This document shows, one piece after another, positions 39,380 through 56,941 of a DNA stretch of 64,000 bases. A program made the translations under genes and the position numbers. Below the pieces are notes generated by a model. That model did no database searches and was not told the DNA's origin. It saw nothing but the letters and a program-made list of their open reading frames with translations. The DNA comes from Bdellovibrionales bacterium. Its GTDB lineage: Bacteria > Bdellovibrionota > Bdellovibrionia > Bdellovibrionales > UBA1609. Positions within the stretch are counted from its first letter, which is position 1, and every line of letters starts with the position of its first letter. The stretch spans positions 487,574 to 551,573 of the forward strand of contig CBDBBW010000007.1 in assembly GCA_965203225.1 (NCBI GenBank). Reading direction: 5' to 3'.

Positions 39380-41484
39380 GCTTTTTTCTCTTTCTTTTCT
39401 TTTTCTGTGTGTTTCTTAATCAACTCAACCTGTATACCCCCCGGCACTTGGAAATATCTGGCAAATTCCATAGTGAATTCCCCTTTCCCTTGAGTGGCTG
39501 AACGCAGTTCCGTGGAATAGCTAAACATTTCCGCCAGGGGAACTTCCGCCTCAATGGTAACGAATTTGTTTTGCGAATGAGTATTTTTAATCATTCCTCT
39601 TCTTTGGTTGATTTGTCCAATGACATTACCTTGAAATTCATCCGGCGCCGACACCTCCAGTTTCATTATAGGCTCCAGCACAGCAGGGGAGGCTTTGGAA
39701 AAATGTTCCCGAAACGCGGTCATCGCACAAATTTTAAAAGCCAGTTCACTGGAATCCACATCATGGTAGGCTCCATCAGATAAAATAGCCTGAACCCCCA
39801 CAATGGGAAATCCGAGCAGTGGGCCTTTTTTCATCTGTTCCTGAAAACCCCGATCCACAGCCGGAATGTATTCTTTTGGAATCCGTCCTCCGGTAATTTT
39901 GCTTACAAATTCATAGTTTTTCTCTTCATCCACCGGCAAAGGATTAAATGTTCCCATTACCTTGGCAAATTGTCCCGCTCCCCCTGTTTGTTTTTTATGA
40001 GTGTATTCGTATTTCACGGGTTTCGTGATGGTTTCACGGTAAGCCACTTGAGGCTGTCCCACATTCACTTCGCACTTGAATTCTCTTTTCATTCTTTCGA
40101 TGTAAATATTCAGATGAAGCTCTCCCATTCCTGAAATCACTGTTTGTGCTGATTCCTCATCTCTGTGCACTCGAAAGGTGGGGTCCTCTCTGGTGAATTT
40201 TTGTAAAGCTTTACTGAAATTACCGGTGGAGCTTCGCTCTTTGGGTTCAATGGCCATAGAAATAACCGCATTCGGCACAAACATGGAGGTCATGGTGTAT
40301 TGCGCGTTTTCAGAACAAAAAGTGTCCCCGGAAGCGCAGTCAATGCCAAAAAAAGCTACGATGTCCCCTCCTTTTGCAATTTCGATATCCTCCATTTCAT
40401 CCGCGTGCATATAAACGATACGAGGCACTTTTACTTTTTTTCCCGTTCGTACATTATAGATAAAATCCCCCTTTTTTACTGTTCCTTGATACAGCCTCAT
40501 ATAAGTAAGTTGTCCAAAGCGGGTGTCATCCAGCTTAAAGGCCAGTCCCACGAAAGGGGTTTCAAGGCGGGGTGACAGAATGACTTCCCTTTCATTGTTC
40601 ATCTGGTCCAGGGCTTTGTTTTCGACTTCAGCCGGACTGGGGAGGTAATTCACCACTGCGGATAATACCGGTTGCACTCCTTTGTTTTTGAAGGCGGACC
40701 CCATAAAAACCGGGGTTGCATTTAAAGACAAGGTGACCTTACGAAGAGCTGAATGTATCTCCTCTTCATCGGGGTCTTTTTCATTTAGGAATTTTTCCGC
40801 CAGAGTATCGTCAAAGTCCGACAAAGCTTCAATCATTTTCAAACGGTATTCCCGAGCTTGATTTTTCAGTTCCTCAGGCATATCTTTGGTTACCGGCCGT
40901 TCCCCTTCCTCACCTTCAAAGTAAATCGCTTTCATTGTCACCAGATCTACCACTCCTTCGTGTTTTTCTTCCAAGCCAATCGGAATTTGCGTTAAAATCG
41001 TGTTATGATTCAGTTTTTCCCTTAACATTTCACAAACCCGAAAAGGGTTGGCGCCGGCCCTGTCCAATTTATTGATAAAGGCGATACGAGGCACTTTATA
41101 TCGTCGCATCTGGCGATCCACTGTAATGGACTGAGACTGCACTCCAGCTACACCACACAGGACCAGGATAGCGCCGTCCAATACTCTTAAGGACCTTTCC
41201 ACTTCAATGGTGAAGTCCACATGTCCGGGGGTATCAATAATATTCACATCATGTTCATCCCAGTGTACATTGGTGGCGGCGGACTGAATGGTGATGCCTC
41301 GTTCTTTTTCCAACTCCATAGAATCCATTTTGGCTCCCACTCCATCCTTACCTCGCACATCGTGAATGGCGTGGATACGCCCGGTATAAAACAAAATTCT
41401 TTCCGTCAAGGTGGTTTTTCCCGAGTCAATGTGAGCGGAAATTCCAATATTACGCACTTTTTCAATATTCCATTTTTTGCTCAT
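39376..41484 (-). CDS. fusA: Elongation factor G
   Basis: G1 [10 protein letters not shown]3 DTPGHVDF, G4 NKLDR. 702 aa with domains II-V. The N-terminus ...[25 protein letters not shown] is of the mitochondrial-EF-G1-like type. Confidence 0.9.
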
Positions 41485-41742
41485 TTTTTCCTGCTTTGTT
41501 TAAATGTTTTCCCTTCGGAGAATGTCCTTGTTTCTTCGGACTTTAAGAAGGGCTAATTACTGTTTATTCTATCCTGTTCTGATTTTCAACACTATTTTTC
41601 CCCTATTTACCGGTTCCTGTTTTTCGCGGTCCTCTTTATTATAGTTCAGGGCGGCTTCATTACCTTTGAACAGGATATTTTTTAATTTAAAAATTTGCCG
41701 TGTTTCCCAAAAAAAGAGACCATATAGCCCATGAAACCATGG

Positions 41743-42056
41743 AATAATCAAATCGAAATAATCAAGAAATATTACAGTGGATTATGCGCTAAAGCCGGGT
41801 TATTTACATGTTTCCTGATATGGTTGTCATACCGGCAAATCCGGCTTTGGAATACAGTTTATATATTAGCACTACTGGCACAGGTATGGCTGTAATTGAA
41901 TAATCAAATCGAAATAATCAAGAAATATTACAGTGGATTATGCGCTAAAGCAGGTTATTTACATGTTTCCTGATGTGGTTGTCATACCGGCAATATCCGG
42001 CTTTGGAATACAGTCTATACATTAGCACTATCGTCACAGGTGTGGCTGTAATTGAA
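41743..42056. repeat. 157-bp tandem duplication (2 copies)
   Basis: aataatcaaatcgaaataatcaagaaatattacagtggattatgcgctaaag... is repeated from 41743 and from about 41900, in the non-coding region upstream of fusA. Confidence 0.9.
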
Positions 42057-42343
42057 TTGGTTAATAAGAAAACAAATAATATGTTTCCTGATACATATTT
42101 GAGATACGACTTGAATCATATATTAATGGGGTATGCTAACAAACGAGAGCCACTTCAAAGCCTGTTTGCAACACTAAAGGATGTGTTGAGCAACGCGTTC
42201 GTAAGGGAAAGGCAGATGGCAATGCTCATTTTTGAAGAGGAGGATACTTTACAAAAAACCATACAAGAATCACGCTAAAACCATGAAAAAAAGCGAATGG
42301 AAAAGTTAAAAATACTGTGTTTATAGGGAGTTATGAAGATTAG

Positions 42344-42998
42344 TGTTAGAGTCGTGCGGACTCTGCCATTTTATAAGTTTTTTGTGTCTTCTGTTTTTCA
42401 ACATTCAGTGTGAAAAATCTGCTGTCTCTTTATAGCTTAAAACACTTGTCGGTAGATACAAGAGATTTTTAACATTTTTATATATAAAATATTTTATATT
42501 TAAAAAATTACAATTATATCAAGAATTTAGTTTTTTAAAAAACTGTTTCATTTTAGGACATTTTGTGATTTCCTGTGTTCTTATTTCAAAAAACAGGTGT
42601 TTTTGTGCTACTCATTTTCGATTTATATAATTCAAGAGTTGGTTTTCACTTTTAGTGATTTATTTTTTTCTTTATTGGATTTTTTTGCAGTGTTTTAATG
42701 CAATAACCTGTTTTATTTCTTTGATTTTCCTATCGCTTCAACATAAAAACCACCCCACTGAACAACTTTCTTTTTCAAATCGGAATATATTAAAAGTTGT
42801 TTTTTATGTAAAATTTCTTTTTTACTCAAGGTAAATCATCTAAAAATTTGAGTTCCATTTTACATGCCATAACTTTCCAGCAGTGACAGCGTTTTTCTTT
42901 TTTTTATTCAAACTCCTATATTTTAAAAACTCATAACACAGTCTTTTGTAATCACTTTGTATCAGCCTATTAATGGCAGAGTCCGCACGACTCTAACA
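42344..42998. other. 27-bp perfect inverted repeats enclosing a 601-bp AT-rich ORF-free segment (candidate invertible switch or MITE)
   Basis: Left arm: tgttagagtcgtgcggactctgccatt (42344-42370). Right arm: aatggcagagtccgcacgactctaaca (42972-42998), its exact reverse complement. Each arm contains its own 6-bp hairpin (agagtc/gactct). Confidence 0.85.
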
Positions 42999-43080
42999 TT
43001 TTCTGATTTAGGAGTGATTTCGGAAAAGGCTGTGGTGGATCAAATGATTTCAAAACTTGTTTCTGTTTTGGTTTGTGTGC

Positions 43081-43189
43081 AATCGAAGGAAGTATCTGTA
43101 ATGCAGTCGAAGGAAGTTACCTGCAAAAGGGTTATGTGTAGTCGAAGGAAGTTATCTGCAATGTAGTCGAAGGAAGTTACCTGCAAAAG
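43081..43189. repeat. Four direct copies of a ~21-bp motif (a/g)tcgaaggaagt(t)a(t/c)ctg(c/t)aa upstream of the small membrane gene and pilin
   Basis: Copies start at 43081, 43105, 43140 and 43165. The array ends 33 nt before GTG 43223. Confidence 0.85.
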
Positions 43190-43222
43190 ACAAGATAACA
43201 AAAAAGTTTTTAAGGATGGATT

Positions 43223-43462
43223 GTGAATAAAACAGACAAAAAATTTATTTCCGCGATAGTTATTTTACACACAGGTGTCATTGTTTTGACAATCTCTGTT
43301 TCCGGTTACTTTTGGCATCATCAAACAATTAAAGTGCAAAAACTGAATCAACTTCATGAGCTGGTTGAGTTCGTAAAAGATACAAACAATGAAATAGGAT
43401 CACAGCAAAAGATTGAAGCGTTGAAAAAACATTATGAAACAAAAGGTGTTTCAGTGGAATGA
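43223..43462 (+). CDS. Small single-pass membrane protein (hypothetical)
   Basis: 79-aa ORF with a GTG start and one TM helix (FISAIVILHTGVIVLTISVSGYF). Lies 31 nt upstream of the pilin gene. Confidence 0.4.
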   Translation: MNKTDKKFISAIVILHTGVIVLTISVSGYFWHHQTIKVQKLNQLHELVEFVKDTNNEIGSQQKIEALKKHYETKGVSVE

Positions 43463-43493
43463 GAATTAACCAATAACCAAAGAAGGGGGAAAT

Positions 43494-44069
43494 ATGAAAA
43501 TAAAAAACAACAAAGGATTTTCGTTGATTGAAGTTCTAGTCACTGTAGGGCTTGTCGGTATCCTGGTGGGTATTGCCGTGCCAAGTTATCGGGGCTACAA
43601 ACAAAATACTGTGAAAATGGCAATAAAGGCGGATGTGGCCAACGGCTCCAAAGTTTATAACGCCAAGTATGCGACAGAATCAACATATTGTTATACTTTA
43701 TTGGATGTTGGGCTTCCACCCATAGCTCAAAGGGCGGTGAATCCTTTGTATAAAAGGCAAGCATTTTATGGCTTTCAGGATGTCGACAGTTCGTGTTCAG
43801 GTGTAAATAGTGGTGATCTATCTTATAAAAGCTCGGGAGCTGGATGTTCTGATACCACACATACAGATCAAACAGCATGTACAGGCGCAGGTGAAACATG
43901 GACGACAAGTGCGGCTAATGCTTTTTCTGGAAGTCCGGCAACGTGTGTATTGGAATCTCAAGCTTTTAAACTTGGAGCAACAACCAATGTTGCTGATTTA
44001 AATGTTTTTTTTACGGCAAACCATGAAGGACAAATACTGGAGGAAGCCACCGGTACTGATTGCCAGTAA
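43494..44069 (+). CDS. Type IV pilin-like protein (prepilin N-terminal methylation motif)
   Basis: MKIKNNKGFSLIEVLVTVGLVGILVGIAVPSY is a class III signal with G|F..E5. There are C-terminal Cys pairs. SD GAAGGGGG lies upstream. Confidence 0.85.
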   Translation: MKIKNNKGFSLIEVLVTVGLVGILVGIAVPSYRGYKQNTVKMAIKADVANGSKVYNAKYATESTYCYTLLDVGLPPIAQRAVNPLYKRQAFYGFQDVDSSCSGVNSGDLSYKSSGAGCSDTTHTDQTACTGAGETWTTSAANAFSGSPATCVLESQAFKLGATTNVADLNVFFTANHEGQILEEATGTDCQ

Positions 44070-44205
44070 TAAAATGTATTTAAGCCACGGCCGGTTTTAC
44101 ATTTTTAGTCTTTGTTTTTCCGGCCTTGATAGCGGGTAACTCAAACAGGTTGTCCACATTTTTTAACTTTATTGTTCCAGCCTTTTAAAGTGATGATGGT
44201 TTTTA

Positions 44206-44472
44206 TTGAGGTTACCTCTTTTTGGTTACGGTATTTTGAAAACACGAAAGACGAAAAAAGAGTATAACCGGCAATACTATCAAAGGAGAAAAAAATCAGC
44301 CGGGCTTTTCTTAAGAAAGAGGAAGTGTCCTTATTGCAAAGAGTGGTATCGTCCCCGATTTGTCTTCAGCCTGGCTTGTTCTGAAAAGCCCTGCCAGGTC
44401 CAAAGAAAAAGAGATTACAATCGTCAATATGTAAAAAGGCCGGAAGTTAAAAAACAACGTGAAAGAGTATGA
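44206..44472 (+). CDS. Small highly basic protein with CxxC...C..C (hypothetical)
   Basis: 88-aa ORF with a TTG start and an internal duplication KKEYNRQYYQRRKK / KRDYNRQYVKRPEVKK around CPYCKEWY...CSEKPC. No family assignment. Confidence 0.3.
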   Translation: MRLPLFGYGILKTRKTKKEYNRQYYQRRKKSAGLFLRKRKCPYCKEWYRPRFVFSLACSEKPCQVQRKRDYNRQYVKRPEVKKQRERV

Positions 44473-44630
44473 CAGGAAATACGGAAGACTTCTTCCTGTC
44501 AATGTTCAGGAGAAAAACAGTCAAGCACAGTAAAAAAGAAGAGTAATGGTGAAAAATATTCACTCTGAGAATATTTTTTTTATGATTCTGAAAACATTAC
44601 ACGCATGAAATATTCCTACTAAGTAAAAAA

Positions 44631-44660
44631 TTGACAGATATTAATTCTAGGGTTTATAGG
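44631..44660 (+). promoter_or_regulatory. Candidate sigma70 promoter of the integrase gene
   Basis: TTGACA (44631-44636), an 18-nt spacer, then TATAGG (44655-44660). SD AAGGAGG (44675-44681) lies 7 nt before ATG 44689. Confidence 0.4.
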
Positions 44661-44688
44661 ATGCCTTAACCAGTAAGGAGGCTAAGTC

Positions 44689-45861
44689 ATGGCTATAACC
44701 AAAAGACCTTTAAAGAAAAACAGACAAAGAAAATTATGTTATCGAGCACAGATTTATGTCAAACACGTTCATATTAAAACCAAGCCTTTTAAGAACGAGA
44801 TAGACACTTGTATTTGGCATGATAAGGAAAAAGAGCGATTTTTGAAAGATCCTTCAGAATTATATCAGAAAAAACATTCTCTCTTTTTTTCCGATTGTTT
44901 TAAGCAGTATAGGAAAGAGGCTTTTCCTTTGCTTAAAAAATCCACACAGCAAAGTTATGAGGAGCGATTTCGGTATTTCACAAAAGGTCCTCTTCCTAAT
45001 GTTAAGATGGAGTGTTTTAATGCCAGATGTGTTCATACATGGATTAACTGGCTTAAGGAACATTCCACCGCGACAAACAAAAGAAGGAAGAGTTTTGTTC
45101 ATGAATTGCAGTTGCTTTCAGTCATTTTAAACTGGTACCGCAACTTTATGGATGAAGATTTTAATGTTCCCATTACAAAACAGCATAGGCAACTTTGCCA
45201 CTATAAGGCTGTTTCGCCCACCCGGCCTGATTATTATGCGAGACCGGATGAATTGAGGCTTTGGATTAAGTGGCTCAAGCAAAACAGAAGCAATCCGGTA
45301 TATTGGAGGCTGGCTTCTTTTATGCTCCTTACGGGGGCGAGAGTGGGTGAAGCCTGTGGCCTGCTTTGGTCTGTTGTGGATTTCAAGCAAGGAACAGCGA
45401 GAGTAATGAGGAGGATAAGGTGGGACCATTATACAAGAAGACCGCATCTTGAAGATGCAACAAAGACGGAGGCTTCCGCGCGTCTGCTGGTTCTTTCTGA
45501 TGAGTTGATAAGCATACTTAAGGCGATGAGGGGGGAAAACAGGGCAAGTGAGTTTTTATTTACAGACAAAAAGGGCGGGGCTTTAAAATACAATGCTATT
45601 CAATCGGCATTTAATGCAGGCTTTATAGCATTAAAGCTCCCTTGGCGCTCAACCCACATATTAAGGCATTCCTACGCCACAATGGCTTTAATAGCTACGA
45701 GAGACCTATCTGCGGTTCAAGCGAGCCTTGGACACACAGAGCAAAGAGTCACTCAGAGGTATGCTAAAGTAGTTGCTCTTTTAAATAGACAGACAGCGGA
45801 AAAAACCACTAAAGCTTTTGACCTGTTTAATGGGGAGCTTGATAATGGATTTATCAACTAA
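44689..45861 (+). CDS. Tyrosine recombinase / phage-type integrase
   Basis: LLTGARVGEACGL (Arg I), HILRHSYATMAL (H-x-x-R), LGHTEQRVTQRYAK (catalytic Tyr). 390 aa. Confidence 0.9.
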   Translation: MAITKRPLKKNRQRKLCYRAQIYVKHVHIKTKPFKNEIDTCIWHDKEKERFLKDPSELYQKKHSLFFSDCFKQYRKEAFPLLKKSTQQSYEERFRYFTKGPLPNVKMECFNARCVHTWINWLKEHSTATNKRRKSFVHELQLLSVILNWYRNFMDEDFNVPITKQHRQLCHYKAVSPTRPDYYARPDELRLWIKWLKQNRSNPVYWRLASFMLLTGARVGEACGLLWSVVDFKQGTARVMRRIRWDHYTRRPHLEDATKTEASARLLVLSDELISILKAMRGENRASEFLFTDKKGGALKYNAIQSAFNAGFIALKLPWRSTHILRHSYATMALIATRDLSAVQASLGHTEQRVTQRYAKVVALLNRQTAEKTTKAFDLFNGELDNGFIN

Positions 45862-46116
45862 AGAGCGTCTTTGTTTTCTGGAAGTTTTTGGTTTATCTGA
45901 AATAGAAAAATCCAAATCTTCACTCAATCTATAGAAACCAACATAACATTTATTGAGAAGAGTTCCGCCTTTAAAAACCAATAGATTAGACCAATCTACA
46001 TAACCTTTTCCCTGAAAAATTTCCTTAAGAATCAGTGAGCAATAATAATCTTTTTCTATTAAAATTTCAGAAAATCCTGAGTTTTGAGAGGTCTTTCTAA
46101 TAGCTTCTAAAAAAAC
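45862..46116 (-). pseudogene. AbiEii-type nucleotidyltransferase toxin, N-terminal fragment only
   Basis: Manual translation: VFLEAIRKTSQNSGFSEILIEKDYYCSLILKEI...LVFKGGTLLNKCYVGFYRLSEDLDFS (AbiEii signature iEKDY...FKGGTaL.K....RfSEDlDF). There is no canonical start, and it is cut off where the integrase 3' end begins. Confidence 0.6.
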
Positions 46117-46126
46117 TTATTCTTTT

Positions 46127-46948
46127 TTATGAAAGTGTAACATTTTCTATAATATTCCATTTTTTATTTACAGAGCCCTTTCTGTTTTTGGGATCAAGAG
46201 GTGTCAGAAAATTTGTATTAGATATTTTCTTTTGTAATGGGTTGATAATTTTCTTTGAAACTTTTAATTGATCTAAAGCCCAGCCAATTCTTTTCTGACT
46301 TATTATATTTCCATATTTGATTGACACATCAATCAGTTTTTTTAATTGGATTTTTTTATCTTTTAAAGAACGAGCTATCCATTCATAAGCAACAGGTAAA
46401 GTTCCATATTTTTTATAATCATAAACAGCATCAAGAAGAGCTTGTTCTGGAGAGCTATATCTTACCCATATAAATTTGTCATCCTCAGTATAAACTTTCG
46501 CTTTTTTTATATTTCCTAAACGAGTTGAAACAACTTTTGTGAAATCCAAATGATATTGAAGAAAATATTTTTTTCTGGAAATTTTATTGTTATATACAGT
46601 AAACCATGCTGAAACTTGATCAGAGTACCCATATAAATTAAATACAGCCTGTCCGCTAATATGAAACTTAGCTCCAACATTTTGCATATATTTATTTATG
46701 ATTAAATAAGGGGAAGGAGACCAACTGCCACTTAAGGGGAGTCTTTGAGGCACTAAATAAAAACCTCGCTCAAGCTGAAAAATAATCCTATTTGAAGATA
46801 AGTTATAAAGTAAATCAGCTTCTTGTTTAGGAGAAAGATTCATGGCTTTTACAAGATCACCGGTTCTTACTTCCTCTTTTTTTTCAAATTGAATCCATGC
46901 AAAAAATTGCATTTCCCAAGGCCCCAATAAAGATTTTTTCTTTGTCAT
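46127..46948 (-). CDS. AbiEi-family antitoxin/transcriptional regulator
   Basis: N-terminal wHTH ...VRTGDLVKAMNLSPKQEADLLYNLSSNRIIFQLERGFYLV and C-terminal ...SSPEQALLDAVYD fit AbiEi. It lies immediately upstream of the AbiEii fragment. Confidence 0.65.
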   Translation of the reverse strand: MTKKKSLLGPWEMQFFAWIQFEKKEEVRTGDLVKAMNLSPKQEADLLYNLSSNRIIFQLERGFYLVPQRLPLSGSWSPSPYLIINKYMQNVGAKFHISGQAVFNLYGYSDQVSAWFTVYNNKISRKKYFLQYHLDFTKVVSTRLGNIKKAKVYTEDDKFIWVRYSSPEQALLDAVYDYKKYGTLPVAYEWIARSLKDKKIQLKKLIDVSIKYGNIISQKRIGWALDQLKVSKKIINPLQKKISNTNFLTPLDPKNRKGSVNKKWNIIENVTLS

Positions 46949-46960
46949 AATTTTTATTAT

Positions 46961-46979
46961 ATTCGCTTTATAAGCGAAT
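46961..46979. promoter_or_regulatory. Palindrome ATTCGCTT-tat-AAGCGAAT just upstream of abiEi (candidate operator)
   Basis: 8-bp perfect arms, 13-31 nt upstream of ATG 46948. AbiEi proteins are known autorepressors that bind inverted repeats in their promoter. Confidence 0.35.
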
Positions 46980-47282
46980 AAAAGAAAAAATATAGCAACA
47001 TCTTACTGATATATACCAATCTTATTTAATTTTTTGAAATGATAGTCATTCCTGCGAAAGTGGGAAAACAACTGAAACCTAAATTTTAAAATTGCAATTA
47101 AGGCTCACTGGATATAGTTAAATTTATAGAGGAAAAATGCTGATAAAAGGAAAAATCATAATTCTTATAAATAATGATCTAGAATTTAGTGAAAAAATGC
47201 AATATGGCTTTGTCCAAGTCAAAGGCATCGAAGAGGATGTTTTTTCAAAAGAAAAAAATCAATATAATCAAGGATGATAAAA

Positions 47283-47564
47283 AATGGATAAAAATTCAGC
47301 TAAAAGATTAGTTAAAAAACTCTGCAAAGCTCTTTCAATAAAGAGCAGTTTATTCATTTAATTAAAAATACCTTGAATGAGTTTGAGGGAAAAACTTTTA
47401 CTTATAAAGGAAATACAATACCAAAAGCTTTCCAATATCCTATAAAAAATTTAGAGCGTGTCGGTCAATATAAAGATTCAGAGGACAATATTCTTGATAT
47501 TCTCATTGTTCAATGTTTTAGTTTATTTTTACTTGTTTTCATGTTTTATATGATCGCATACTAA
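47283..47564 (+). pseudogene. 5' fragment of an Eco57I-like type IIG restriction-modification / DNA methyltransferase gene (frameshifted, truncated)
   Basis: MDKNSAKRLVKKL.. (frameshift) ..FNKEQFIHLIKNTLNEFEGKTFTYKGNTIPKAFQYPIKNLERVGQYKDSEDNILDILIV matches, from memory, the conserved N-terminus of this family (F.kekF..fi.nlLn......y.G..ip.a....i..leriG.Y.d.....idiLiV). Nothing of the enzyme follows. Confidence 0.4.
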
Positions 47565-47750
47565 CCTTCTTTGTAAAGTTTTGGTGTGTTATAATGCACC
47601 AGAAAGCAGGTCTTTAAACTGCTTTTTTACTCTTGTTCAATCTCTTGCAAATGAAAAAAGAATCTGATTCCCTTCAAAATCCTGTCAAAAAAATAATAAA
47701 CCGACTTCTATTTGTTCTTTATAGAAATAATGCTATATAATCTCTTTTAA

Positions 47751-50501
47751 ATGTTAGAAAAACAGACACGACAAGAAATTATTGATAAGTTGCTTAAAAA
47801 AGCTGGCTGGGATGTAGATAATCCTTCACAAGTTGTTTCTGAACATGAGGTTTTTCATCAAATAGGTACGGTTAGTGGCGTTGGTTTTTCTGATTATGTT
47901 TTACTAGATAAAGCTGGCAATCCTCTTGCTGTTGTAGAAGCAAAAAAAAGCTCTTCTGATGCAAGAAAAGGAAGAGAACAAGCCAAACAATACGCAGATG
48001 GTTTTGAAAAAGCAGGACATGATCGACCTTTTATTTTTTATACTAATGGGAATAATATTTATTTTTGGAATGATTCAACAGATATACCAGGAAAAATTTA
48101 TGGCTTTCTTACAAGAGATGATTTAGAAAGCTTGCTATTTAAAAGAAAAGAAAAATTAGACTTATCTTCTTTGCCAATTGAAACCAACATTGCCGGTCGC
48201 CCTTATCAAATAGAGGCTATCCGAAAAGTGATAGAAAATTACTCTCAAAATAAGCGTTCTGCTTTGCTTGTTATGGCTACAGGAACAGGAAAAACCAGAA
48301 CAGCTATAGCTATTATAGATATTTTGATGCGCTCTCATTGGCTTAAAAGAGTTCTCTTTTTAGCTGATCGAAACGCCCTTCTAAGACAGGCAAAAGCATC
48401 CTTCACAGAATATTTACCCCATGCTCCTAGACACTGGATTAAACAAGGCCGGTTTCCTGAAGACAAACGAGTTTATTTTTCCACCTATCCCAGTATGCTT
48501 AGCTTATATCATAAAATATCACATGGTTTTTTTGATCTTATTATTTGTGATGAGTCTCATAGAAGCATTTATAACAGATACAGAGAAATACTGGATCATT
48601 TCTATTCTTATAAATTAGGCTTAACAGCTACACCAGTTGATTATATTGATCGAAATACTTTTCATTTATTTGATGTTGAAGTAGGCAATCCCAGCTTCAA
48701 CTTCAGTTATGAAGATGCTATAAACAATAAGCCTTCCTACTTAGTCCCCTATCAAGTTCTATCTGTGCAGTCTCGTTTTCAAATGGAAGGCATTAAAGCT
48801 GGTCAATTACCGGTCTCTGTTCAAAAAAAATTAGTAGCAGAAGGAAAAGACTTAGAAGAAATTGACTTTGACGGAACAGATTTAGAAAAGAAAGTTACAA
48901 ACTCTGGAACAAATGAGTTGATTGTTTGTGAGTTTATGAAGGAGTGTATCAAAGACGAAAATGGAGTCTTGCCCGGAAAATCCATTATATTTGCTATCTC
49001 TCACAAGCATGCTTTAAGGCTTGAAGAGGCTTTTAATAAAATGTTCCCTCAGCATAAAGGTCGTCTGGCTAGAGTGATTGACTCCCATAACCCCAGAGCT
49101 AATACAGAAGGAGGTCTATTAGATCAATTTAAAGACCCTAAAAACCCTCTAAAAGTAGCTGTTTCAGTAGATATGCTGGATACAGGTATTGATGTGCCGG
49201 AAGTTGTCAATCTTGTATTTGCCAAGCCTGTATTTTCAAGGGCTAAATTTTGGCAAATGATAGGAAGAGGAACAAGGCTTTGCCCCAATTTATTTGGTCT
49301 AGCTAAAGATAAAAAGAATTTTTTAATTCTAGATCATTGGAATAATTTTTCTTACTTTGAAATGAAGCCAGAAGGAAAAGAGCCTTCTACTAGCCGTTCT
49401 ATTCCAGAGCAGTTGTTTCAAACAAAACTTGATAAAGCAGAGGCTGTTTTGTCTCACTCTCTAACACATCTTAAAGACAAAACTATCCAATCTTTAAAAG
49501 AGGAAATCAATGCTCTGACTATGGAAAGTGTTCCTGTAAAAGAAAAGGCTGGACAAGTGGCTCAAGTTAAAGAAGAAGCTTTTTGGAAAAGCTTTAATCA
49601 AAATAGTATTGATTTTTTACAGAAACACATTTGCCCGCTTATGAAGACACAAATGGCTAGAGATTTTCAATCTCTGCGCTTTGATATTGATATTTTGGAA
49701 TCTCAAATTGCCGTAATCCACCAGGACGAAGAACAAATTGAAAAAACCAAAGAAAAAATACAACAAAAAATATCTGAACTTCCTTTAACATTAAATCAAG
49801 TCCGAGCGAAAGAGTCTGTTATCACTAAAACCAGATCACAAAATTTTTGGAATCAGTTATCAGAAGAATCTCTTGAAAGCTTAAGACTTGATTTGAGAAA
49901 GCTCATGCAATATCGCTCTCTGCCTAGTAATGAAATGGAAAAATTGCATTTAGAAGACATGGTTTTAATTAAACAAAATATTGAGTTTGGACCCGACATG
50001 GAACAAGCTGGTGTTTCTGAATATCGCAAAAGATTGGAAACAAAAATACAAAACCTTCTTTCTAATAATGAAGTTTTACAGCGTCTTAAAAAGGGTAAAA
50101 AGATTGACGATGTAGATATAGAAAATTTGGCCTGTATTTTACAAAGTGAAGACCCTTATATTACACTGGATAACTTAAGAAAAGTTTATGACAATAAAAA
50201 AGCCAGTTTTATTGATTTTATAAATCATGTTTTAGGGCTTCAAAAGCTTCAAACCCGATCAGAAATTATTGCAAATTCTTTTGATCTTTTTATAAAAAAT
50301 CATAGTGATTTCAGTTCGGATCAAATTCGATTCCTGCAAATCCTCAAAATTTTTGTGATTGAACGAGGACAGACTACAAAAGAAAATTTAACCTCTCCGC
50401 CTTTTACCAACTTACATCATGAAGGCGTTATGGGTATTTTTAAACCTCAACAAATCACAGAAATTTTATCTTTTATAGAGGAAATAAATGAAAAGCTTTA
50501 A
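47751..50501 (+). CDS. hsdR: Type I restriction enzyme R subunit (EcoEI-like, COG4096 type)
   Basis: N-terminal PD-(D/E)xK nuclease FSDYVLLDKAGNPLAVVEAKK, helicase motif I MATGTGKT, motif II ICDESHRS, and a C-terminal EcoEI_R_C-like domain (...FSSDQIRFLQILKIFVIERGQ...). Confidence 0.85.
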   Translation: MLEKQTRQEIIDKLLKKAGWDVDNPSQVVSEHEVFHQIGTVSGVGFSDYVLLDKAGNPLAVVEAKKSSSDARKGREQAKQYADGFEKAGHDRPFIFYTNGNNIYFWNDSTDIPGKIYGFLTRDDLESLLFKRKEKLDLSSLPIETNIAGRPYQIEAIRKVIENYSQNKRSALLVMATGTGKTRTAIAIIDILMRSHWLKRVLFLADRNALLRQAKASFTEYLPHAPRHWIKQGRFPEDKRVYFSTYPSMLSLYHKISHGFFDLIICDESHRSIYNRYREILDHFYSYKLGLTATPVDYIDRNTFHLFDVEVGNPSFNFSYEDAINNKPSYLVPYQVLSVQSRFQMEGIKAGQLPVSVQKKLVAEGKDLEEIDFDGTDLEKKVTNSGTNELIVCEFMKECIKDENGVLPGKSIIFAISHKHALRLEEAFNKMFPQHKGRLARVIDSHNPRANTEGGLLDQFKDPKNPLKVAVSVDMLDTGIDVPEVVNLVFAKPVFSRAKFWQMIGRGTRLCPNLFGLAKDKKNFLILDHWNNFSYFEMKPEGKEPSTSRSIPEQLFQTKLDKAEAVLSHSLTHLKDKTIQSLKEEINALTMESVPVKEKAGQVAQVKEEAFWKSFNQNSIDFLQKHICPLMKTQMARDFQSLRFDIDILESQIAVIHQDEEQIEKTKEKIQQKISELPLTLNQVRAKESVITKTRSQNFWNQLSEESLESLRLDLRKLMQYRSLPSNEMEKLHLEDMVLIKQNIEFGPDMEQAGVSEYRKRLETKIQNLLSNNEVLQRLKKGKKIDDVDIENLACILQSEDPYITLDNLRKVYDNKKASFIDFINHVLGLQKLQTRSEIIANSFDLFIKNHSDFSSDQIRFLQILKIFVIERGQTTKENLTSPPFTNLHHEGVMGIFKPQQITEILSFIEEINEKL

Positions 50502-50511
50502 GTTAAATTGC

Positions 50512-52004
50512 TCAACTAAAATTAATTTGGAAGTCTTTAATCATTCTTTCAATAACAGGATGATGAGGTATATAGCAAAACATTTGAAGGTTGCTGTCTG
50601 TTGTATCATACAACACATCTAAAAGAGGAAAAGAAGGGTTAACTAGACCTATTCTCACTAAACCTAAATGTGGACTCATAGGTCGAACCTGTTCCCAAAG
50701 CCTTAACCTTAATTGGCTTAAAACTTCTGGTTGTCCTTTTAATAACCTACCTAATTCATCATGAATATAGTCTGTTAATTTTATAAACCTTGTTCCCAAA
50801 GACAACTGAATAGGACTCCCACCGCTCCTAAATATCCAATCTAATTGAACAGCTATATTCCAACCCCCACTATATAACTGCTCTGGAGAAGTTCTTAATT
50901 CATTATGTGTAGCTATAACCAATGTTCTGGGAATAATTTGATAATTGTCAGTCTCTGGAAATGGACTATAGTTTGGAGCCTCCAGATGAAGAACAGGGTA
51001 AGAAAAATTATTTTTCTGGGCTGTTTTAATTTTAAATCTCGCATTAGTTCCAATATTATCATCGTGTATGTATAGTATATCACTTGAAGAATCTTCTAAG
51101 GTAATAGTAGGTATTTCCGATGAGCTAAGTTTATCTCTAAAACCCACTGCACACACAGCATGTGGTCCAATATCTTGATTTCTACTTTTCAAATCACCTA
51201 AAACAATAACAGGATAGCCTGATCGGATATAGGAGGCAATAGAACTCATAAATCGATCTTTTGTGAAATATTTTTGATTATTCAATATATAATCACCATT
51301 TTGAACCATAGGAGACAGCCCTAACTCTTTTATAGCTTCATATAGTTGAAAGTCAGTTAAACCTTTTGAGGGGAATGTTTTTGAGCCTAAAGAAGCTGTC
51401 TTATTTGCCAGCTTAGTAATCTCTGCCGTGGTTGGTATGGCATGAAAATCATCAAATGCAGAAGATTGAAGGGCTGACCATAAAGCAATTGTTGCACAAG
51501 CCCCTACCCCAGAATCTTGCTGTTGCCAAGCTAAACCTTCTACTTTTAATTTAACTCCGGCAACATGACAAACATACTCTCTTCTTACTGTTAAGCGGTT
51601 ACTGTTTTGCTCTTTGTTCCCATACCATTTAAGGACAGTCCGTCCAAACTGAGTTTGTATAGGTCTTAAAACACAAAAACCGAGATAATTGTCACTTAAA
51701 ATTCGTATAGAATTTTTATCTCCTCCAACAGCTTTTTCAAAAAATGCTCTGTCTATACTATCATCAGAAAAAAGTGAAACCTTTGACAGATATTTTCATA
51801 TCCAGAAACACTGGTAGAATAAAAAGATGAAAATTCAGATAGATAATCCCTATCAAAATAGTTTGGCTCTATCAATATCCTTTTTACATTTAAACCTTGA
51901 AGATAATTTAAAAGATACTGCGTTTGTTTTGAGTTTTTATTTTTAGTTAATCTCTCTTTACCTTCTTCAAAAGACAAAAATTCTAATGACTTGGGAGAGT
52001 GCAT
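50512..52004 (-). pseudogene. ~497-codon papain-like (Cys-His) peptidase-fold protein with an unassigned N-terminal domain, split by a frameshift in a homopolymer
   Basis: The track shows 83 aa (52004-51753) plus 265 aa (51309-50512). My translation shows the second frame is open from 51795 with no Met. One extra T in the T6 run (A6 on the plus strand, 51768-51773) fuses ...CQRFHFF to SDDSIDRAFFEK.... Catalytic-looking WQQQDSGVGACATIALW (Gln + Cys), GPHAVCAVGF (His), IHDDNIG. Confidence 0.55.
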
Positions 52005-52028
52005 GTAAATTCCTGATTTAACAAACTA

Positions 52029-52226
52029 TTATTTTTGAGGTTTAAACATTTTTGCCATTTCTTCTATTTCAGGAGCTGGCTTATTGATGTCAATGTTATT
52101 ATCTTTAATATGTTGGATTGCTTTTTCTATCTCCTGATGTGTGGGAAGAAAAGACTCATCCATATCTGCAAGAGTTGTTGTCCATAAAGACGACCTTTGA
52201 TTTTTTGCTTTCTCTGAATGTCCCAT
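52029..52226 (-). CDS. Small acidic hypothetical protein, 24 nt upstream of the peptidase-like gene
   Basis: 65-aa ORF on the same strand, tightly spaced. No recognisable motif. Confidence 0.35.
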   Translation of the reverse strand: MGHSEKAKNQRSSLWTTTLADMDESFLPTHQEIEKAIQHIKDNNIDINKPAPEIEEMAKMFKPQK

Positions 52227-52425
52227 AATCTCCTCCTGTGTCCTTATTTATATTGTAGCTCTTCAAATAGTCAATAAGTAGTTATTTCTGTTTTTTAGCT
52301 TAAAAATGGATGGTATAATTTCCCTAATTATTTAAAAAAAACTTTTAAAAACAAGGTAGAATCTTAATTAAATGTGGTATTATATATATTGACACTACCA
52401 CATTTAATAGGGATACTACCACATT

Positions 52426-53526
52426 ATGAGTTCTTTAAGCCCAAAATTCATTGATTCACTCAATTTTAACAGCTCTCATTTAGCCGATTTAAGAAGGCTT
52501 GGAGAATTTAGAGGAAAACAAGACCTTTTTAGTAAAAAATCACAAGAAGCTCTCAAAGTTCTTAAACAACATGCCATTATTGAATCTATTGAATCGTCCA
52601 ATAGATTGGAGCAAATCACAGCTCCTTATCAAAGAATCAAAGGGCTTGTAAATCAATCCACAACTCCAAAAAATCGATCGGAAAAAGAAATATCAGGTTA
52701 TAGAGATGCTCTTAATCAAATCCATGAGTCTTATAAACACATGGAAGTATCGGTTAATATAATAAAGCAATTACATACAATAATTTATCGCCATTTATCA
52801 GAGGACGGAGGAAAGTTTAAATCAGCTGATAATAAAATTATTGAAAAAGACCCTAGCGGACAGATTATTCGGGAGCGTTTTGCCCCTGTGTCTGCTCTCC
52901 AAACTCCTCAAATTATGGATAAGTGCTGCAAAAGTTACATAGATTTTTTAAGCAATACTAGCACAGACCCTCTTATTCTTTTGCCTCTTTTTATTTTGGA
53001 TTTTCTCTGTATTCACCCTTTTAAAGACGGAAATGGTCGTATTTCCAGACTGCTAACTCTTTTGATATTACACCGTCATGGTTATGAAGCGGGAAAATAC
53101 ATAAGTTTAGAACGGATATTTGAAGAATCAAAAGAAAGCTACTATAGAAGCCTTTATGAAAGCTCTCAAAACTGGCATTCAGCTAAGCATGATCCTTTCC
53201 CTTGGATAGAATATTTTTGGGGGGTTATGATTAAAGCCTATAAAGAATTTGAGGAAAGAGTTACTCATATTAAAGACACCATTGGCGGAAAAGGCTCTAA
53301 GGCAGAACAAATCAAATTTATTATTAGAAAAAAAATAGGACCCTTTTCTATTTCAGATATTGAAAAAGCCTGCCCCGGTATAAGCAGAGATTGGATTCGT
53401 TATGTTCTAAGAGAACTTAGAACCAAAGGAGAATTACAATCTATTGGAGTGGGTCGTGGCTCTAAATGGGTTTTAGTAAAAGGCTGGGGAGGCGGTTTAG
53501 ATTTTGAAGATAAAGAAGACTCATAA
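52426..53526 (+). CDS. Fic/DOC-family protein (AMPylase-type) with C-terminal wHTH
   Basis: Canonical Fic motif HPFKDGNGRISRLLT (HxFx[D/E]GNGRxxR). 366 aa. Ends 27 nt before hsdM-S. Confidence 0.85.
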   Translation: MSSLSPKFIDSLNFNSSHLADLRRLGEFRGKQDLFSKKSQEALKVLKQHAIIESIESSNRLEQITAPYQRIKGLVNQSTTPKNRSEKEISGYRDALNQIHESYKHMEVSVNIIKQLHTIIYRHLSEDGGKFKSADNKIIEKDPSGQIIRERFAPVSALQTPQIMDKCCKSYIDFLSNTSTDPLILLPLFILDFLCIHPFKDGNGRISRLLTLLILHRHGYEAGKYISLERIFEESKESYYRSLYESSQNWHSAKHDPFPWIEYFWGVMIKAYKEFEERVTHIKDTIGGKGSKAEQIKFIIRKKIGPFSISDIEKACPGISRDWIRYVLRELRTKGELQSIGVGRGSKWVLVKGWGGGLDFEDKEDS

Positions 53527-53553
53527 TCAGATCAAAATCATATAGAGGATACT

Positions 53554-56058
53554 ATGTTAGAAGCTGGCTTAAAATCAAAAATTGATAAACTTTGGGATCT
53601 ATTTTGGTCTGGCGGGATAGCCAACCCTCTTACAGCTATAGAGCAAATTTCCTATTTGCTTTTTATGAAAAAATTAGATGATCAAGATATTAAGAAAAAA
53701 AAAGAGGCAAAGTTTGTCGGGAAAGCTTATCGTTCCATTTTTAAAAACAATAAGGAACTGTGTTGGTCTCACTGGAAACACTTTGAAGCGGAGCAAATGC
53801 TTAATCATGTTCGAGACAATGTTTTTCCTTTTATGAAAAAATTAAATTCAAGCAGTAACAATGGATTTTCTGCCCAAATGAAAGACGCTGTGTTTATCAT
53901 ACCCAAGCCGAGCCTGCTTGTTCAGGCTGTGGAAATCATTGAAAGCCTTAAAATCCACGAGCAAAACCAAGACACACAAGGAGATATTTACGAGTATTTG
54001 CTTTCAGAGTTACAAACTTCCGGCAAAAACGGACAGTTTAGAACTCCAAGACATATTATTAAAATGATGTGTGAATTAACAGATATAAAAATAGGGCAAA
54101 CAGTTTGCGATCCCTCTTGTGGAACAGGAGGTTTTTTAATAGGAGCTTATCAATATATTTTAAAACAACAAACAAGCCCAAAGCTTATCACTGTAGATGA
54201 AGAGGGCGTGGAACATGGACTGGTAAGAGATAAAATCACAAGCTCAAAAGCATGGAGTCATCTTAGAAATAAAACTTTTTATGGTTTTGATTTTGATTCA
54301 ACGATGCTCCGCATTTCTGCAATGAATATGGCTTTGCATGGTATTCAAAACCCAAATATAAAATATTTAGATTCTATTTCTAAAAGCAATGAGGAGGAAA
54401 ACCGCTATGATGTGATTTTAGCTAATCCTCCTTTTAAGGGAAACATTGATAAAGGCGATATTCATTCAGACCTCAGTAGAACAGTTAAAACAACCCGAAC
54501 AGAGTTACTTTTTATAGCTCAAATGATGAGACTTCTTAAAATTGGCGGACAATGTGCTGTGATTGTTCCCAGTGGGGTTTTGTTCCGATCAGACAAAGCT
54601 CATACCGCTATTAGAAAAAAAATTATTGAAGAGGCTCAACTTGAGGCTGTGATCTCTATGCCTTCGGGAGTGTTTAAACCTTATGCCGGAGTTTCAACAG
54701 CCATTTTATTATTTACCAAAGGGGGAGAGACAGAAAAAGTGTGGTTTTATGACATGACAGCCGATGGATTCAGCTTTGATGATAAACGAAGCAAAATAAA
54801 AGAAAATGACATTCCTGATATTCTTGAAAAATGGAAACAAAGACACAAGTTAAAAGAGCCGAAAAAAGAAGACAAATGGTTTTTTGTGATCAAAAAAAAG
54901 ATAGTGAAAAACAGCGATTACAGTTTGAATGGAAGAATATATAAAGAGACTGTAGATTATAGTCAAACAAAATGGCCTATGGTGGAGTTGGGAGGAATTG
55001 CTGATGTAATCTCAGGACAGTCTCCAGAGAGTAAATACTATAACAAAAAAGGTGAAGGGTTGCCTTTTTATCAAGGAAAAACTGAATTTTCAGATATATA
55101 TTTAGGCAACCCTGTTATATGGACAAATAAGACTACAAAAACAGCACAAAAAGATGATATTTTAATGTCTGTCCGCGCTCCTGTAGGTCCCGTTAATATC
55201 TCTACAGAAAAAATTTGTATTGGCAGAGGTTTAGCTACTATTCGGGCTAAAGATAAAGTCAATATGAAATTTTTATTTTATTTCCTGAAATCTATTTCTA
55301 GTCAAATTAGAGGGGTGGGTGGTTCTGTATTTGATTCCATAAATCAAAAGCAAATTAAACAAATAAAAATCCCTCTACCTCCTTTAGAAGTTCAAAAAGA
55401 AATTATAGATGAAATTGAAGGCTATCAAAAAATCATAGACGGAGCAAAACAAGTCGTTGATAATTGGAAACCCACTTTAAAAATTGATCCTTCTTGGTCT
55501 ATAGTGGAGTTGGGAGAAAATTGTAATATTCAATCGGGTGGCACTCCAAGTCGTTCAATAAAATCTTACTGGAACGGTAAAATTCCTTGGATAGGCTCAA
55601 CAGTTTGTAAAGATAAAGAAGTTATTAAAGCAAAAGAGTTTATTACAGTGAAAGGATTAAAAAGTTCATCAGCAAAGCTTTTTAAAAAAAACACAACATT
55701 GATTGCATTAGTGGGGGCAACTATTGGCAAGACTGGTCTTTTAAAGTTTGAGTGTGCAACTAATCAAAATATAGCTGGTTTATTCCCAAAGAATCCCAAT
55801 AAGGTTTATCCGATTTATCTTTTTTATGCAACACAGAAGCTTTATTCTAATTTTTTAAATTTAGGAGAAAAAAATTTTAAAATGGCAAATCTTTCTTTTG
55901 TAAAACAACAAAAAATCCCTCTCCCAACTCTTGAAGTTCAAAAAGAAATTGTAGAACAAATTGAAAAAGAAAAATCTCATGTTGAATCCTGTAAAGAGCT
56001 GATAAAAATCAACACAGAAAAAATCCAACAAAAAATAAACGAGATATGGAAAAAATAA
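53554..56058 (+). CDS. hsdM: Type I R-M methyltransferase fused to a complete two-TRD specificity subunit (HsdM-HsdS fusion)
   Basis: HsdM_N (LWDLFWSGGIANPLTAIEQISYLLFMKKL), GQFRTPRHII, motif I DPSCGTGGFL, motif IV ILANPPFKG. From about aa 470 there are two target-recognition domains, each followed by the conserved helix LPPLEVQKEIIDEIE / LPTLEVQKEIVEQIE. Confidence 0.8.
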   Translation: MLEAGLKSKIDKLWDLFWSGGIANPLTAIEQISYLLFMKKLDDQDIKKKKEAKFVGKAYRSIFKNNKELCWSHWKHFEAEQMLNHVRDNVFPFMKKLNSSSNNGFSAQMKDAVFIIPKPSLLVQAVEIIESLKIHEQNQDTQGDIYEYLLSELQTSGKNGQFRTPRHIIKMMCELTDIKIGQTVCDPSCGTGGFLIGAYQYILKQQTSPKLITVDEEGVEHGLVRDKITSSKAWSHLRNKTFYGFDFDSTMLRISAMNMALHGIQNPNIKYLDSISKSNEEENRYDVILANPPFKGNIDKGDIHSDLSRTVKTTRTELLFIAQMMRLLKIGGQCAVIVPSGVLFRSDKAHTAIRKKIIEEAQLEAVISMPSGVFKPYAGVSTAILLFTKGGETEKVWFYDMTADGFSFDDKRSKIKENDIPDILEKWKQRHKLKEPKKEDKWFFVIKKKIVKNSDYSLNGRIYKETVDYSQTKWPMVELGGIADVISGQSPESKYYNKKGEGLPFYQGKTEFSDIYLGNPVIWTNKTTKTAQKDDILMSVRAPVGPVNISTEKICIGRGLATIRAKDKVNMKFLFYFLKSISSQIRGVGGSVFDSINQKQIKQIKIPLPPLEVQKEIIDEIEGYQKIIDGAKQVVDNWKPTLKIDPSWSIVELGENCNIQSGGTPSRSIKSYWNGKIPWIGSTVCKDKEVIKAKEFITVKGLKSSSAKLFKKNTTLIALVGATIGKTGLLKFECATNQNIAGLFPKNPNKVYPIYLFYATQKLYSNFLNLGEKNFKMANLSFVKQQKIPLPTLEVQKEIVEQIEKEKSHVESCKELIKINTEKIQQKINEIWKK

Positions 56059-56272
56059 AAAATGAAAATCCTCAAGTTTTACATGAGCTTATTTATTTTT
56101 ATAGTTTCTTTGTGTGTTAAGAATTGTAGCTTAGATAACAAATAAATTGAAAAGGGGTTAAACAATGGCTCTTATATTTTTCGATCAAAATGTAATGGAA
56201 AAAATGTCAAAAAAAGGACATCAAGCTTTTCAAAATAATGTAGATCTCCTTTTGAAGGAGAGAGCAAAAAAC

Positions 56273-56772
56273 AATGAGGAGGATAAGGTGGGACCATTAT
56301 ACAAGAAAACCGCATCTTGAAGATGCAACAAAGACGGAGGCTTCCGCGCGTCTGCTGGTTCTTTCTGATGAGTTGATAAGCATACTTAAGGCGATGAGGG
56401 GGGAAAACAGGGCAAGTGAGTTTTTATTTACAGACAAAAAGGGCGGGGCTTTAAAATACAATGCTATTCAATCGGCATTTAATGCAGGCTTTATAGCATT
56501 AAAGCTCCCTTGGCGCTCAACCCACATATAAGGCATTCCTACGCCACAATGGCTTTAATAGCTACGAGAGACCTATCTGCGGTTCAAGCGAGCCTTGGAC
56601 ACACAGAGAAAGTGTTAGGTAGTCAGACCCAACAGACTGGGCACAAGCGAGCCTTGGACACACAGAGCAAAGAGTCACTCAGAGGTATGCTAAAGTAGTT
56701 GCTCTTTTAAATAGACAGACAGCGGAAAAAACCACTAAAGCTTTTGACCTGTTTAATGGTGAGCTTGATAAT
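56273..56772 (+). pseudogene. Duplicate of the integrase 3' end (direct repeat of 45405-45846), degraded
   Basis: Near-identical to 45405-45846, except for a few substitutions, a 1-nt deletion (acccacatat-aaggc, about 56528) and a ~59-bp insertion (about 56610-56668) that includes a 24-bp local duplication. The track ORFs 56274-56531 and 56510-56698 are its pieces. Confidence 0.9.
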
Positions 56773-56941
56773 TGAGTTTTAAGCTCTCTCACTTAAATTG
56801 ATAGCTTGTTGGAAAGAAAAGAGAAAAAACACTGTGAAAATCACTGCAAGAAAAAAGCGGTCATAAAAAAACCTTGTATTTCCAAAAGAGCGGCGGGGTG
56901 GACGGTATGATTCAAACCGCTTTTTTTAAAAAAGAGGTTTT

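Follow-up and report, generated by a model that had tools for sequence, protein, structure and literature searches.

A putative invertible promoter switch upstream of a type IV pilin operon in an uncultured Bdellovibrionales bacterium

The window analyzed here, a stretch of 64,000 nucleotides from an uncultured Bdellovibrionales bacterium, contains a pair of long inverted repeats just before a gene pair that includes a type IV pilin gene. This arrangement raises the question of whether the DNA between the repeats can be flipped, and so control the pilin gene. An earlier note on this DNA had proposed either an invertible switch or a miniature inverted-repeat transposable element (MITE). We consider it likely, with a probability of about 0.7, that the 655-bp element is a promoter inverton, serving as a phase-variation switch for an operon composed of orf79, which encodes a small membrane protein, and the pilin gene.

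The repeat-bounded element and its genomic setting

The left arm of the element, TGTTAGAGTCGTGCGGACTCTGCCATT (42344-42370), and the right arm (42972-42998) are exact reverse complements, complementary at 27/27 positions and 601 nt apart, which confirmed the 27-bp perfect repeats and their placement as described in the earlier note. The whole repeat-bounded element spans 655 bp, and its features are collected in Table 1. No match to the 27-mer with up to 3 mismatches was found in 100 dinucleotide-preserving shuffles of the window, and a census of the whole 2.08-Mb genome returned just seven perfect inverted repeats of at least 27 nt spaced by at most 3 kb. The perfection of the arms far exceeds chance. 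The interior (42371-42971) has a G+C content of 25-29%, and its longest ORF is 59 aa, with none that is credible, in line with the AT-rich segment lacking ORFs of 60 aa or more reported previously.

An AGAGTC/GACTCT stem is present in both arms, corresponding to the 6-bp hairpin that had been seen within each repeat, and the arms folded as RNA at -8.7 to -12.3 kcal/mol. On the minus strand, the arm reads AATG-GC-AGAGTC / CGCAC / GACTCT-AA-CATT, an imperfect 12-14-bp palindrome with the asymmetric 5-nt centre CGCAC. On the plus strand both arms resemble terminators, with a hairpin followed by a T run.

The element lies in a non-coding stretch that runs from 41485 to 43222, matching the 1.7 kb claimed for it, in which the sole long frame is a 101-aa ORF without a family match. 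The non-coding segment with its inverted-repeat borders stands directly upstream of orf79, whose GTG start at 43223 lies 224 nt past the right arm; a spacing of about 225 nt to a small membrane gene and a pilin gene had been given. The tyrosine recombinase gene said to lie 1.7 kb further on was likewise located (44689-45861). Rfam and tRNA scans found neither an RNA family nor a tRNA near the element, and it is thus not a tRNA-linked att site.

Table 1. Positions of the proposed switch, the pilin operon and associated features in the window
Feature	Position	Strand	Basis or remark
Inserted island, ~15.3 kb	41598..56900	.	approximate boundaries; fusA and 490-aa gene only ~95 bp apart in G001 and G010
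Conserved left flank, CACGC(A/T)A-type and GTGWTTAYAGG motifs	42251..42343	+	collinear with left flank of the G013 switch
Left recombination arm (IRL), putative	42344..42370	.	27/27 match, shuffles, hairpin folding
Invertible segment, 601 bp, putative	42371..42971	.	inversion deduced from homologous segments of relatives
Putative switch promoter TTGTAT-N16-TAAGCT	42434..42461	-	motif conserved in position; -35 at 42461-42456, -10 at 42439-42434
Conserved segment core, oriented like away-facing copies	42444..42606	+	nhmmer E 2e-4; homologous to G008, G012 and G014 interiors
Second sigma-70-like site TTTACA-17-TATATT (10/12), leftward as assembled	42784..42812	-	consensus match only
Right recombination arm (IRR), putative, exact reverse complement of IRL	42972..42998	.	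27/27 match, shuffles, folding
Direct repeats of ~21 nt, n=4, in leader between right arm and orf79	43081..43189	+	
orf79, small membrane protein, first gene of controlled pair, GTG start	43223..43462	+	conserved beside pilin gene in genus
Type IV pilin, 191 aa, leader MKIKNNKG/FSLIEV	43494..44069	+	Pfam N_methyl; NCBIfam prepilin-type cleavage/methylation domain
orf88, small, very basic, Cys pairs	44206..44472	+	just upstream of integrase gene
Intact tyrosine recombinase, 390 aa, candidate invertase	44689..45861	+	Pfam Phage_integrase

The pilin carries the methylation motif at its N-terminus, and its family is multi-copy in the genus. Weak homologs of orf88 sit downstream of pilin modules in G012 and G014, and orf88 possibly encodes a DNA-binding accessory factor or a recombination directionality factor. 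The direct repeats in the leader (AGTCGAAGGAAGTTAYCTGCAA) are irregularly spaced, and are possibly binding sites for a regulator or a feature of the leader RNA. A 156-bp tandem duplication (41739-42057) lies upstream of the switch. Neither the leader repeats nor this duplication has a counterpart in the modules of relatives.

The counterparts of the gene fusA (39376-41484) and of a gene encoding a 490-aa protein (56942-58414) are divergent neighbors in G001 and G010, about 95 bp apart. Homology to these two genomes ends just upstream of fusA and resumes within the 490-aa gene, and a remnant of the ancestral spacer, GATTTTCAACACTATTTTT, is kept at ~41579-41597. The short spacer in G001 and G010, together with the break in homology, indicates that ~15.3 kb of the window is an inserted island. 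Besides the switch and the pilin pair, the island carries orf88, the integrase, a defence cassette and the decayed 3' end of a second integrase gene. In G014, an integrase fragment adjoins fusA. The fusA spacer may be a site of repeated integration.

Related elements upstream of the same gene pair

No sequence near-identical to the window locus was found in any collection searched. Exact-protein look-ups of orf79 and the pilin returned no record in public assemblies, exact scans with arm 27-, 22- and 20-mers gave 0 matches in metagenome, genome and viral contigs, and a BLAST search of plasmids gave no match to the element. Nothing similar to the element or its arms was present in 60 related genomes. 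A search of the window's own genome at up to 6 mismatches, short hairpin-core matches included, revealed no further copies of the arm.

Within the genus, the orf79-pilin pair forms a module present in multiple copies, with a paralog on contig C6 of the same genome (42% and 56% identity) and nine pilin copies in G012. The regions upstream of these modules were scanned for inverted-repeat architecture. Five other species of the genus have related switches before this orf79-pilin pair. Seven G012 loci and one G014 locus contain perfect arms of 28-33 nt, 294-297 nt apart, G013 contains perfect 29-nt arms 450 nt apart, and G008 contains arms that are 90% complementary at the equivalent position. 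The distance to orf79 is mostly 60-420 nt, and ~1.4 kb in one G012 copy. Partial switch copies are present at contig ends in G002, G008 and G014.

The arms of relatives are palindromic around a small asymmetric centre, e.g. AAATGGCGTTTCC-TACCA-GGAAACGCCATTT, and fold at ~-22 kcal/mol. The sequence of the stem changes across species, and the dyad symmetry is kept. In G012 the central triplet varies between copies (ACC, ACT, ATC), and is always equal within a pair. The matching triplets and the conserved dyad would fit the binding site of a recombinase dimer with an asymmetric crossover region. They would also fit insulating hairpin terminators, and an arm could play both roles.

Among the G012 copies, the interiors share 85-97% identity and point either way with respect to the genes, 4 vs 3: copies a, d, e and g share one orientation with the G014 copy, and copies b, c and f have the other. 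This split was independently confirmed by a whole-genome search. In the comparison of loci L100 and L101, the gene-side flanks are collinear and 98.9% identical over 1566 bp, the far flanks are collinear and 96.1% identical, but the 361 bp from arm to arm, 98.1% identical, are reversed. Site-specific inversion at the arms has exactly this signature. The 25 G012 matches to the element all sit in the eight pilin-associated loci, none of them alone and with module flanks that are homologous on both sides, and the copies have therefore spread via duplication of the whole module rather than by transposition of the element.

In L098 (4786-4815; G012:C5, ~1087784-1087814), one hybrid arm connects the left flank directly to the right flank, and the interior is deleted. 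Such a deletion is possible because the palindromic arms are also near-direct repeats, which suggests that they can recombine in direct register too, leaving a promoter-less scar. Contigs of short-read assemblies end inside or right beside a switch in G008 (C93, C263, C31), G002 (C1) and G014 (C78, C14). Such breaks would be expected if both orientations coexist in a sample, and are circumstantial evidence of this.

Several other repeats and insertions were observed in the relatives' modules. Hairpins of the form ATTCCC-N8-GGGAAT recur in leaders and spacers of the pilin modules (L099, L100, L101, L105, L107, L108, L014), with a variant ATTCCGG...CCGGAAT in G008; none is present in the window. 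Their pattern is that of the Neisseria dRS3 repeats. In G012 copy b, orf79 is interrupted by an IS3-type element (L099 10856-12048). Upstream of orf79 in another G012 locus, a 20-bp inverted repeat with 1.9 kb between its arms (L103 2641-4572) was rejected as a switch and assigned to an insertion sequence with a 560-aa ORF that we take to encode a transposase.

To place the window element relative to this family, a profile was built from the G008, G012 and G014 switches and searched with nhmmer against the whole genome of the window. The best match (C6:116870-117000, E 7e-6) falls in the promoter region, devoid of arms, of the paralogous orf79-pilin pair, and the second-best match (window 42444-42606, E 2e-4) lies inside the element. 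In pairwise comparisons the window interior has the same orientation as those of G008 (E 4e-12) and G012_a (E 2e-6), and the opposite orientation to the C6 paralog promoter region (E 3e-10). Relative to G013, the interior is opposite (E 1e-4) and the left flanks are collinear (E 3e-4). The interior homology is modest, with 61-65% identity over 163/601 bp of AT-rich DNA with high composition bias. The window interior is roughly doubled in length (601 vs about 300 bp), and the window arms share with the G012 type only the outer AATGGC. By these comparisons, the window element is to be regarded as a diverged member of a genus-wide switch family. The invertible-switch reading of the earlier note is thus strengthened by repeat-bounded homologs at the same position in five species, in both orientations and between collinear flanks.

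A promoter-like motif, TTGnnT-N16-TAAnCT, is shared between copies and keeps its position. It reads TTGTAT-N16-TAAGCT in the window, TTGTTT-N16-TAAACT in the C6 paralog, TTGATT-N16-TAGACT in G013, TTGGTT-N17-CATAAT in G012 and, read by eye, TTGGCT-N16-TAATCT in G014:C1. The spacers have a yCGAnAA core in common. The proposed -10 element of the window, TAAGCT, is a poor match to the sigma-70 consensus. The window motif, found at ~60 nt from the left arm, faces leftward, away from the pilin operon, and further consensus promoter matches inside the segment are all leftward. The earlier note had mentioned many promoter-like hexamers; promoter-like sites in the region are no more frequent than in shuffled sequence.

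The motif faces the genes in both copies that are missing arms, namely the C6 copy, which has no arms, and the G014:C1 copy, which has one. Judging from this architecture, neither would be able to flip any more. In both copies, which also lack the left flank, the interior segment stays directly upstream of orf79 in one orientation. The gene-facing orientation was designated ON because both of these non-flippable copies face the genes. The window motif points away from the pilin genes, so that the switch, with its putative promoter, is read as OFF for the pilin operon as assembled. The C6 copy looks permanently ON.

The paralogous pair with its arm-less, gene-facing switch interior occupies C6:115839-117000, and three tandem repeats of ~72 bp lie upstream of it. 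A CRISPR-like array is located ~3 kb upstream of this paralogous locus (C6 ~119400-120400), in which the 36-nt repeat ATTTTCCTCAGTAGAAGACTGAGGCCTCATTGCGAC occurs at least 10 times, with spacers of ~36 nt.

The proposed switch, its candidate recombinase and alternative explanations

We propose that the two arms, each dyad-symmetric about an asymmetric centre and inverted relative to each other, would be paired and exchanged by a recombinase. Exchange by a site-specific recombinase between inverted dyad-symmetric arms would flip the 601-bp segment. In the OFF state, the putative promoter at 42461-42434 (minus strand) would fire leftward, away from the pilin genes. After inversion to the ON state, it would lie ~60 nt inside the right arm, from where transcription would cross that arm and the 224-nt leader to reach orf79 and the pilin gene. 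Each copy of the multi-copy pilin module would be served by its own switch, genus-wide. As the invertase, a tyrosine recombinase is most likely, with the adjacent 390-aa integrase, or one of its paralogs in trans, as the probable enzyme. We infer the flipping of the window copy, the activity of its promoter and the identity of the enzyme from sequence.

The case for the enzyme is made by elimination and by linkage, which leave the adjacent integrase as the best candidate. Serine recombinases (PF00239) are absent from the window's own genome and from G012, G013 and G014, and IS110/Piv-type enzymes (PF01548) are absent from the own genome and from G013, G008 and G002. The own genome's set of tyrosine recombinases consists of two Xer-like proteins, the 390-aa integrase and a truncated paralog. 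The segments of the 390-aa protein containing the Arg, H-x-x-R, His and Tyr motifs align with those of solved recombinases, and the alignment places the predicted catalytic Tyr in a QRYAK stretch. As claimed in the earlier note, whose doubt about this enzyme is fair, it is of phage type rather than FimB-like: it is 390 aa in length, has a long N-terminal region and is the sole neighboring recombinase. Several genera of the bacterial family carry this integrase family in multiple copies, as many as 15 in one genome, together with numerous fragments, and it looks primarily like one of mobile-island integrases.

The order switch-orf79-pilin-integrase recurs in G013 (L095), and an integrase lies beside the pilin gene, or a few kb from it, in three more G013 loci and in G008:C31. 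The G012 switches have no recombinase gene within ~5 kb, and the enzyme must thus be able to act in trans. The integrase family co-occurs with the switch in 6/6 switch genomes vs 3/9 others, a co-occurrence that may be a clade effect, the switch genomes probably forming one clade. No arm-like sequence was found at island or integrase boundaries, so that the arms could not be linked to the integrase's own att sites. Given an active switch, the integrase family is the most likely invertase, at slightly less than an even chance, with XerC/D as the alternative.

Two further explanations accept the inverton ancestry of the element. According to one, the element descends from an inverton, no longer flips and is fixed OFF, with the pilin pair silent or transcribed from another promoter. 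A doubled interior (601 vs about 300 bp) with recognizable homology over 163 bp, and an arm sequence unlike those of all relatives, would be in keeping with such a fossil, and locked derivatives are known in the family (the hybrid arm of L098, the single arm of G014:C1, the arm-less paralog of the own genome). However, the arms still match at 27/27 positions while their surroundings have diverged beyond BLAST recognition, as expected only under selection or homogenization by recombination, and the neighboring recombinase gene is intact; we therefore regard a locked switch as unlikely. According to the other, the segment inverts but contains no promoter: the transcript would start in the left flank, which is conserved across species, and orientation would set the termination of the leader RNA at the terminator-like arms, both of which have a hairpin and T run on the plus strand. 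Post-initiation control by an invertible leader has a precedent in the Clostridioides difficile flagellar switch (PMC7446863). This explanation is quite improbable, because the C6 copy and the G014:C1 copy, which abuts the end of an ORF, have no left flank but keep the gene-facing interior upstream of orf79, as fits a promoter inside the segment.

The remaining explanations do without inversion. A MITE or other non-autonomous transposon with 27-bp terminal inverted repeats would account for repeats that begin with TG and end with CA, for the absence of coding capacity and for the location on a mobile island. The genome search for the element returned one copy, single even at up to 6 arm mismatches, with no target-site duplication of any length (flanks GAAGATTAG on the left and TTTTCTGAT on the right), and no copies were present in the 60 relatives or in the genome, metagenome, viral and plasmid collections. 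The relatives' copies never stand alone, all 25 G012 matches being confined to the eight pilin-associated loci with homologous flanks. A true multi-copy inverted-repeat family of the own genome (GGTTCATGATACTTTAAG) looks different from the element. The MITE option of the earlier note is consequently extremely unlikely. Static hairpins serving as terminators or insulators, or an iteron-type origin of replication belonging to the small island, would agree with the hairpin and T run in each arm, and with an AT-rich core followed by four direct repeats of ~21 nt, which is superficially iteron-like. Against these, homologous segments of relatives were found flipped, no replication initiator gene is present, and the direct repeats are irregular and lie within the operon leader. 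An iteron origin was rejected for want of an initiator gene and because the segments of relatives flip, and static elements in general are very unlikely.

The GGTTCATGATACTTTAAG family occupies four sites in the genome (C5:149671-150434, C5:157916-158681, C7:923797-924548, C7:341085-342752). Its arms are 716-728 bp apart in 3/4 copies and 1632 bp apart in the fourth, and it is probably a small insertion sequence or MITE.

Comparison with known inversion systems and biological meaning

The archetype of fimbrial invertons is fimS of E. coli, which has 9-bp repeats and is acted on by FimB and FimE, proteins of ~200 aa. Promoter invertons are a class catalogued by PhaseFinder (Jiang et al. 2019, as summarised in PMC11868660). 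Like the promoter invertons, fimS among them, the window element is a repeat-bounded, non-coding segment, bearing a promoter that is putative here, directly upstream of a surface-fibre operon. As for fimS, orientation would set the ON and OFF states, and a tyrosine recombinase gene is nearby. The arms differ, being hairpin palindromes of 27-33 bp in the family described here compared with 9 bp in fimS, with a segment of 601 bp in the window. The candidate enzyme is a 390-aa lambda-type island integrase rather than a FimB/FimE pair of ~200 aa, the target is a type IV pilin rather than chaperone-usher fimbriae, and the whole unit rides on a mobile island, unlike fimS. With 27-bp arms and a sole neighboring recombinase of 390 aa, the window locus was not assigned to the fimS/FimB-FimE type.

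Many paralogous surface-protein loci are also switched in Bacteroides fragilis, where the serine recombinase Mpi flips capsule promoters, and in Mycoplasma penetrans, where each mpl gene has one invertible promoter. Similarly, the pilin loci described here (at least 7 switches in G012) each have their own switch in an independent orientation. As in the Mpi regulon, the enzyme would probably act in trans. Unlike in the Mpi system, no serine recombinase is available (neither the own genome nor G012, G013 or G014 contains PF00239), by which an Mpi-type invertase was rejected, and the lineage, arms and gene family differ.

In C. difficile, flagellar and other switches are flipped by the tyrosine recombinase RecV (PMC5386303, PMC7446863). 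The flagellar switch acts post-initiation via the leader RNA, and its promoter lies outside the switch (PMC7446863). The RecV system resembles the one proposed here in its tyrosine recombinase (a candidate here), in the inverted repeats upstream of a surface-appendage operon, and in the use of one enzyme for several switches. The window segment, in contrast to the flagellar switch, probably carries its own promoter, and RecV, unlike the candidate here, is not an island integrase.

In Moraxella bovis and Moraxella lacunata (Piv), and in the R64 shufflon (Rci), the expression or type of a type IV pilin is under the control of DNA inversion, as it would be in the window. These systems invert coding segments and exchange pilin C-termini, whereas the pilin gene here is outside the segment. 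Piv is an IS110-type enzyme. The own genome contains no PF01548 protein and the repeats do not enclose any part of the pilin gene, so assignment to the Piv/shufflon type was rejected. A separate cluster of inverted repeats at 447-452 kb of C6 was examined as a candidate shufflon and rejected; it consists of paralogous secreted-protein genes in both orientations.

A full-text literature search did not reveal any DNA-inversion switch described in Bdellovibrionota. Invertible promoters are already well known, and what is new is the setting, in type IV pilin operons of uncultured, small-genome Bdellovibrionales. Cultured Bdellovibrio needs type IV pili for prey entry, and the small-genome Bdellovibrionales studied here are probable predators or epibionts. 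The presence of several pilin modules per genome with independent switches suggests bet-hedging over attachment specificity. Because the module travels on an integrase-borne island, a phase-variable pilus could be acquired in one step. The strong hairpin and T runs in each arm suggest that the switches may be transcriptionally insulated, and insulated switches could serve as a compact genetic part. The contig breaks and "mirror hairpins" in these metagenome-assembled genomes may be circumstantial marks of active switches.

A more specific proposal is that the lambda-type island integrase family doubles as the invertase of hairpin-forming palindromic sites, with each of up to nine pilin modules per genome having its own insulated switch. 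We hold this proposal to be doubtful. If true, it would give these bacteria a combinatorial, horizontally transferable pilus repertoire, which could set the prey or host cells to which they attach.
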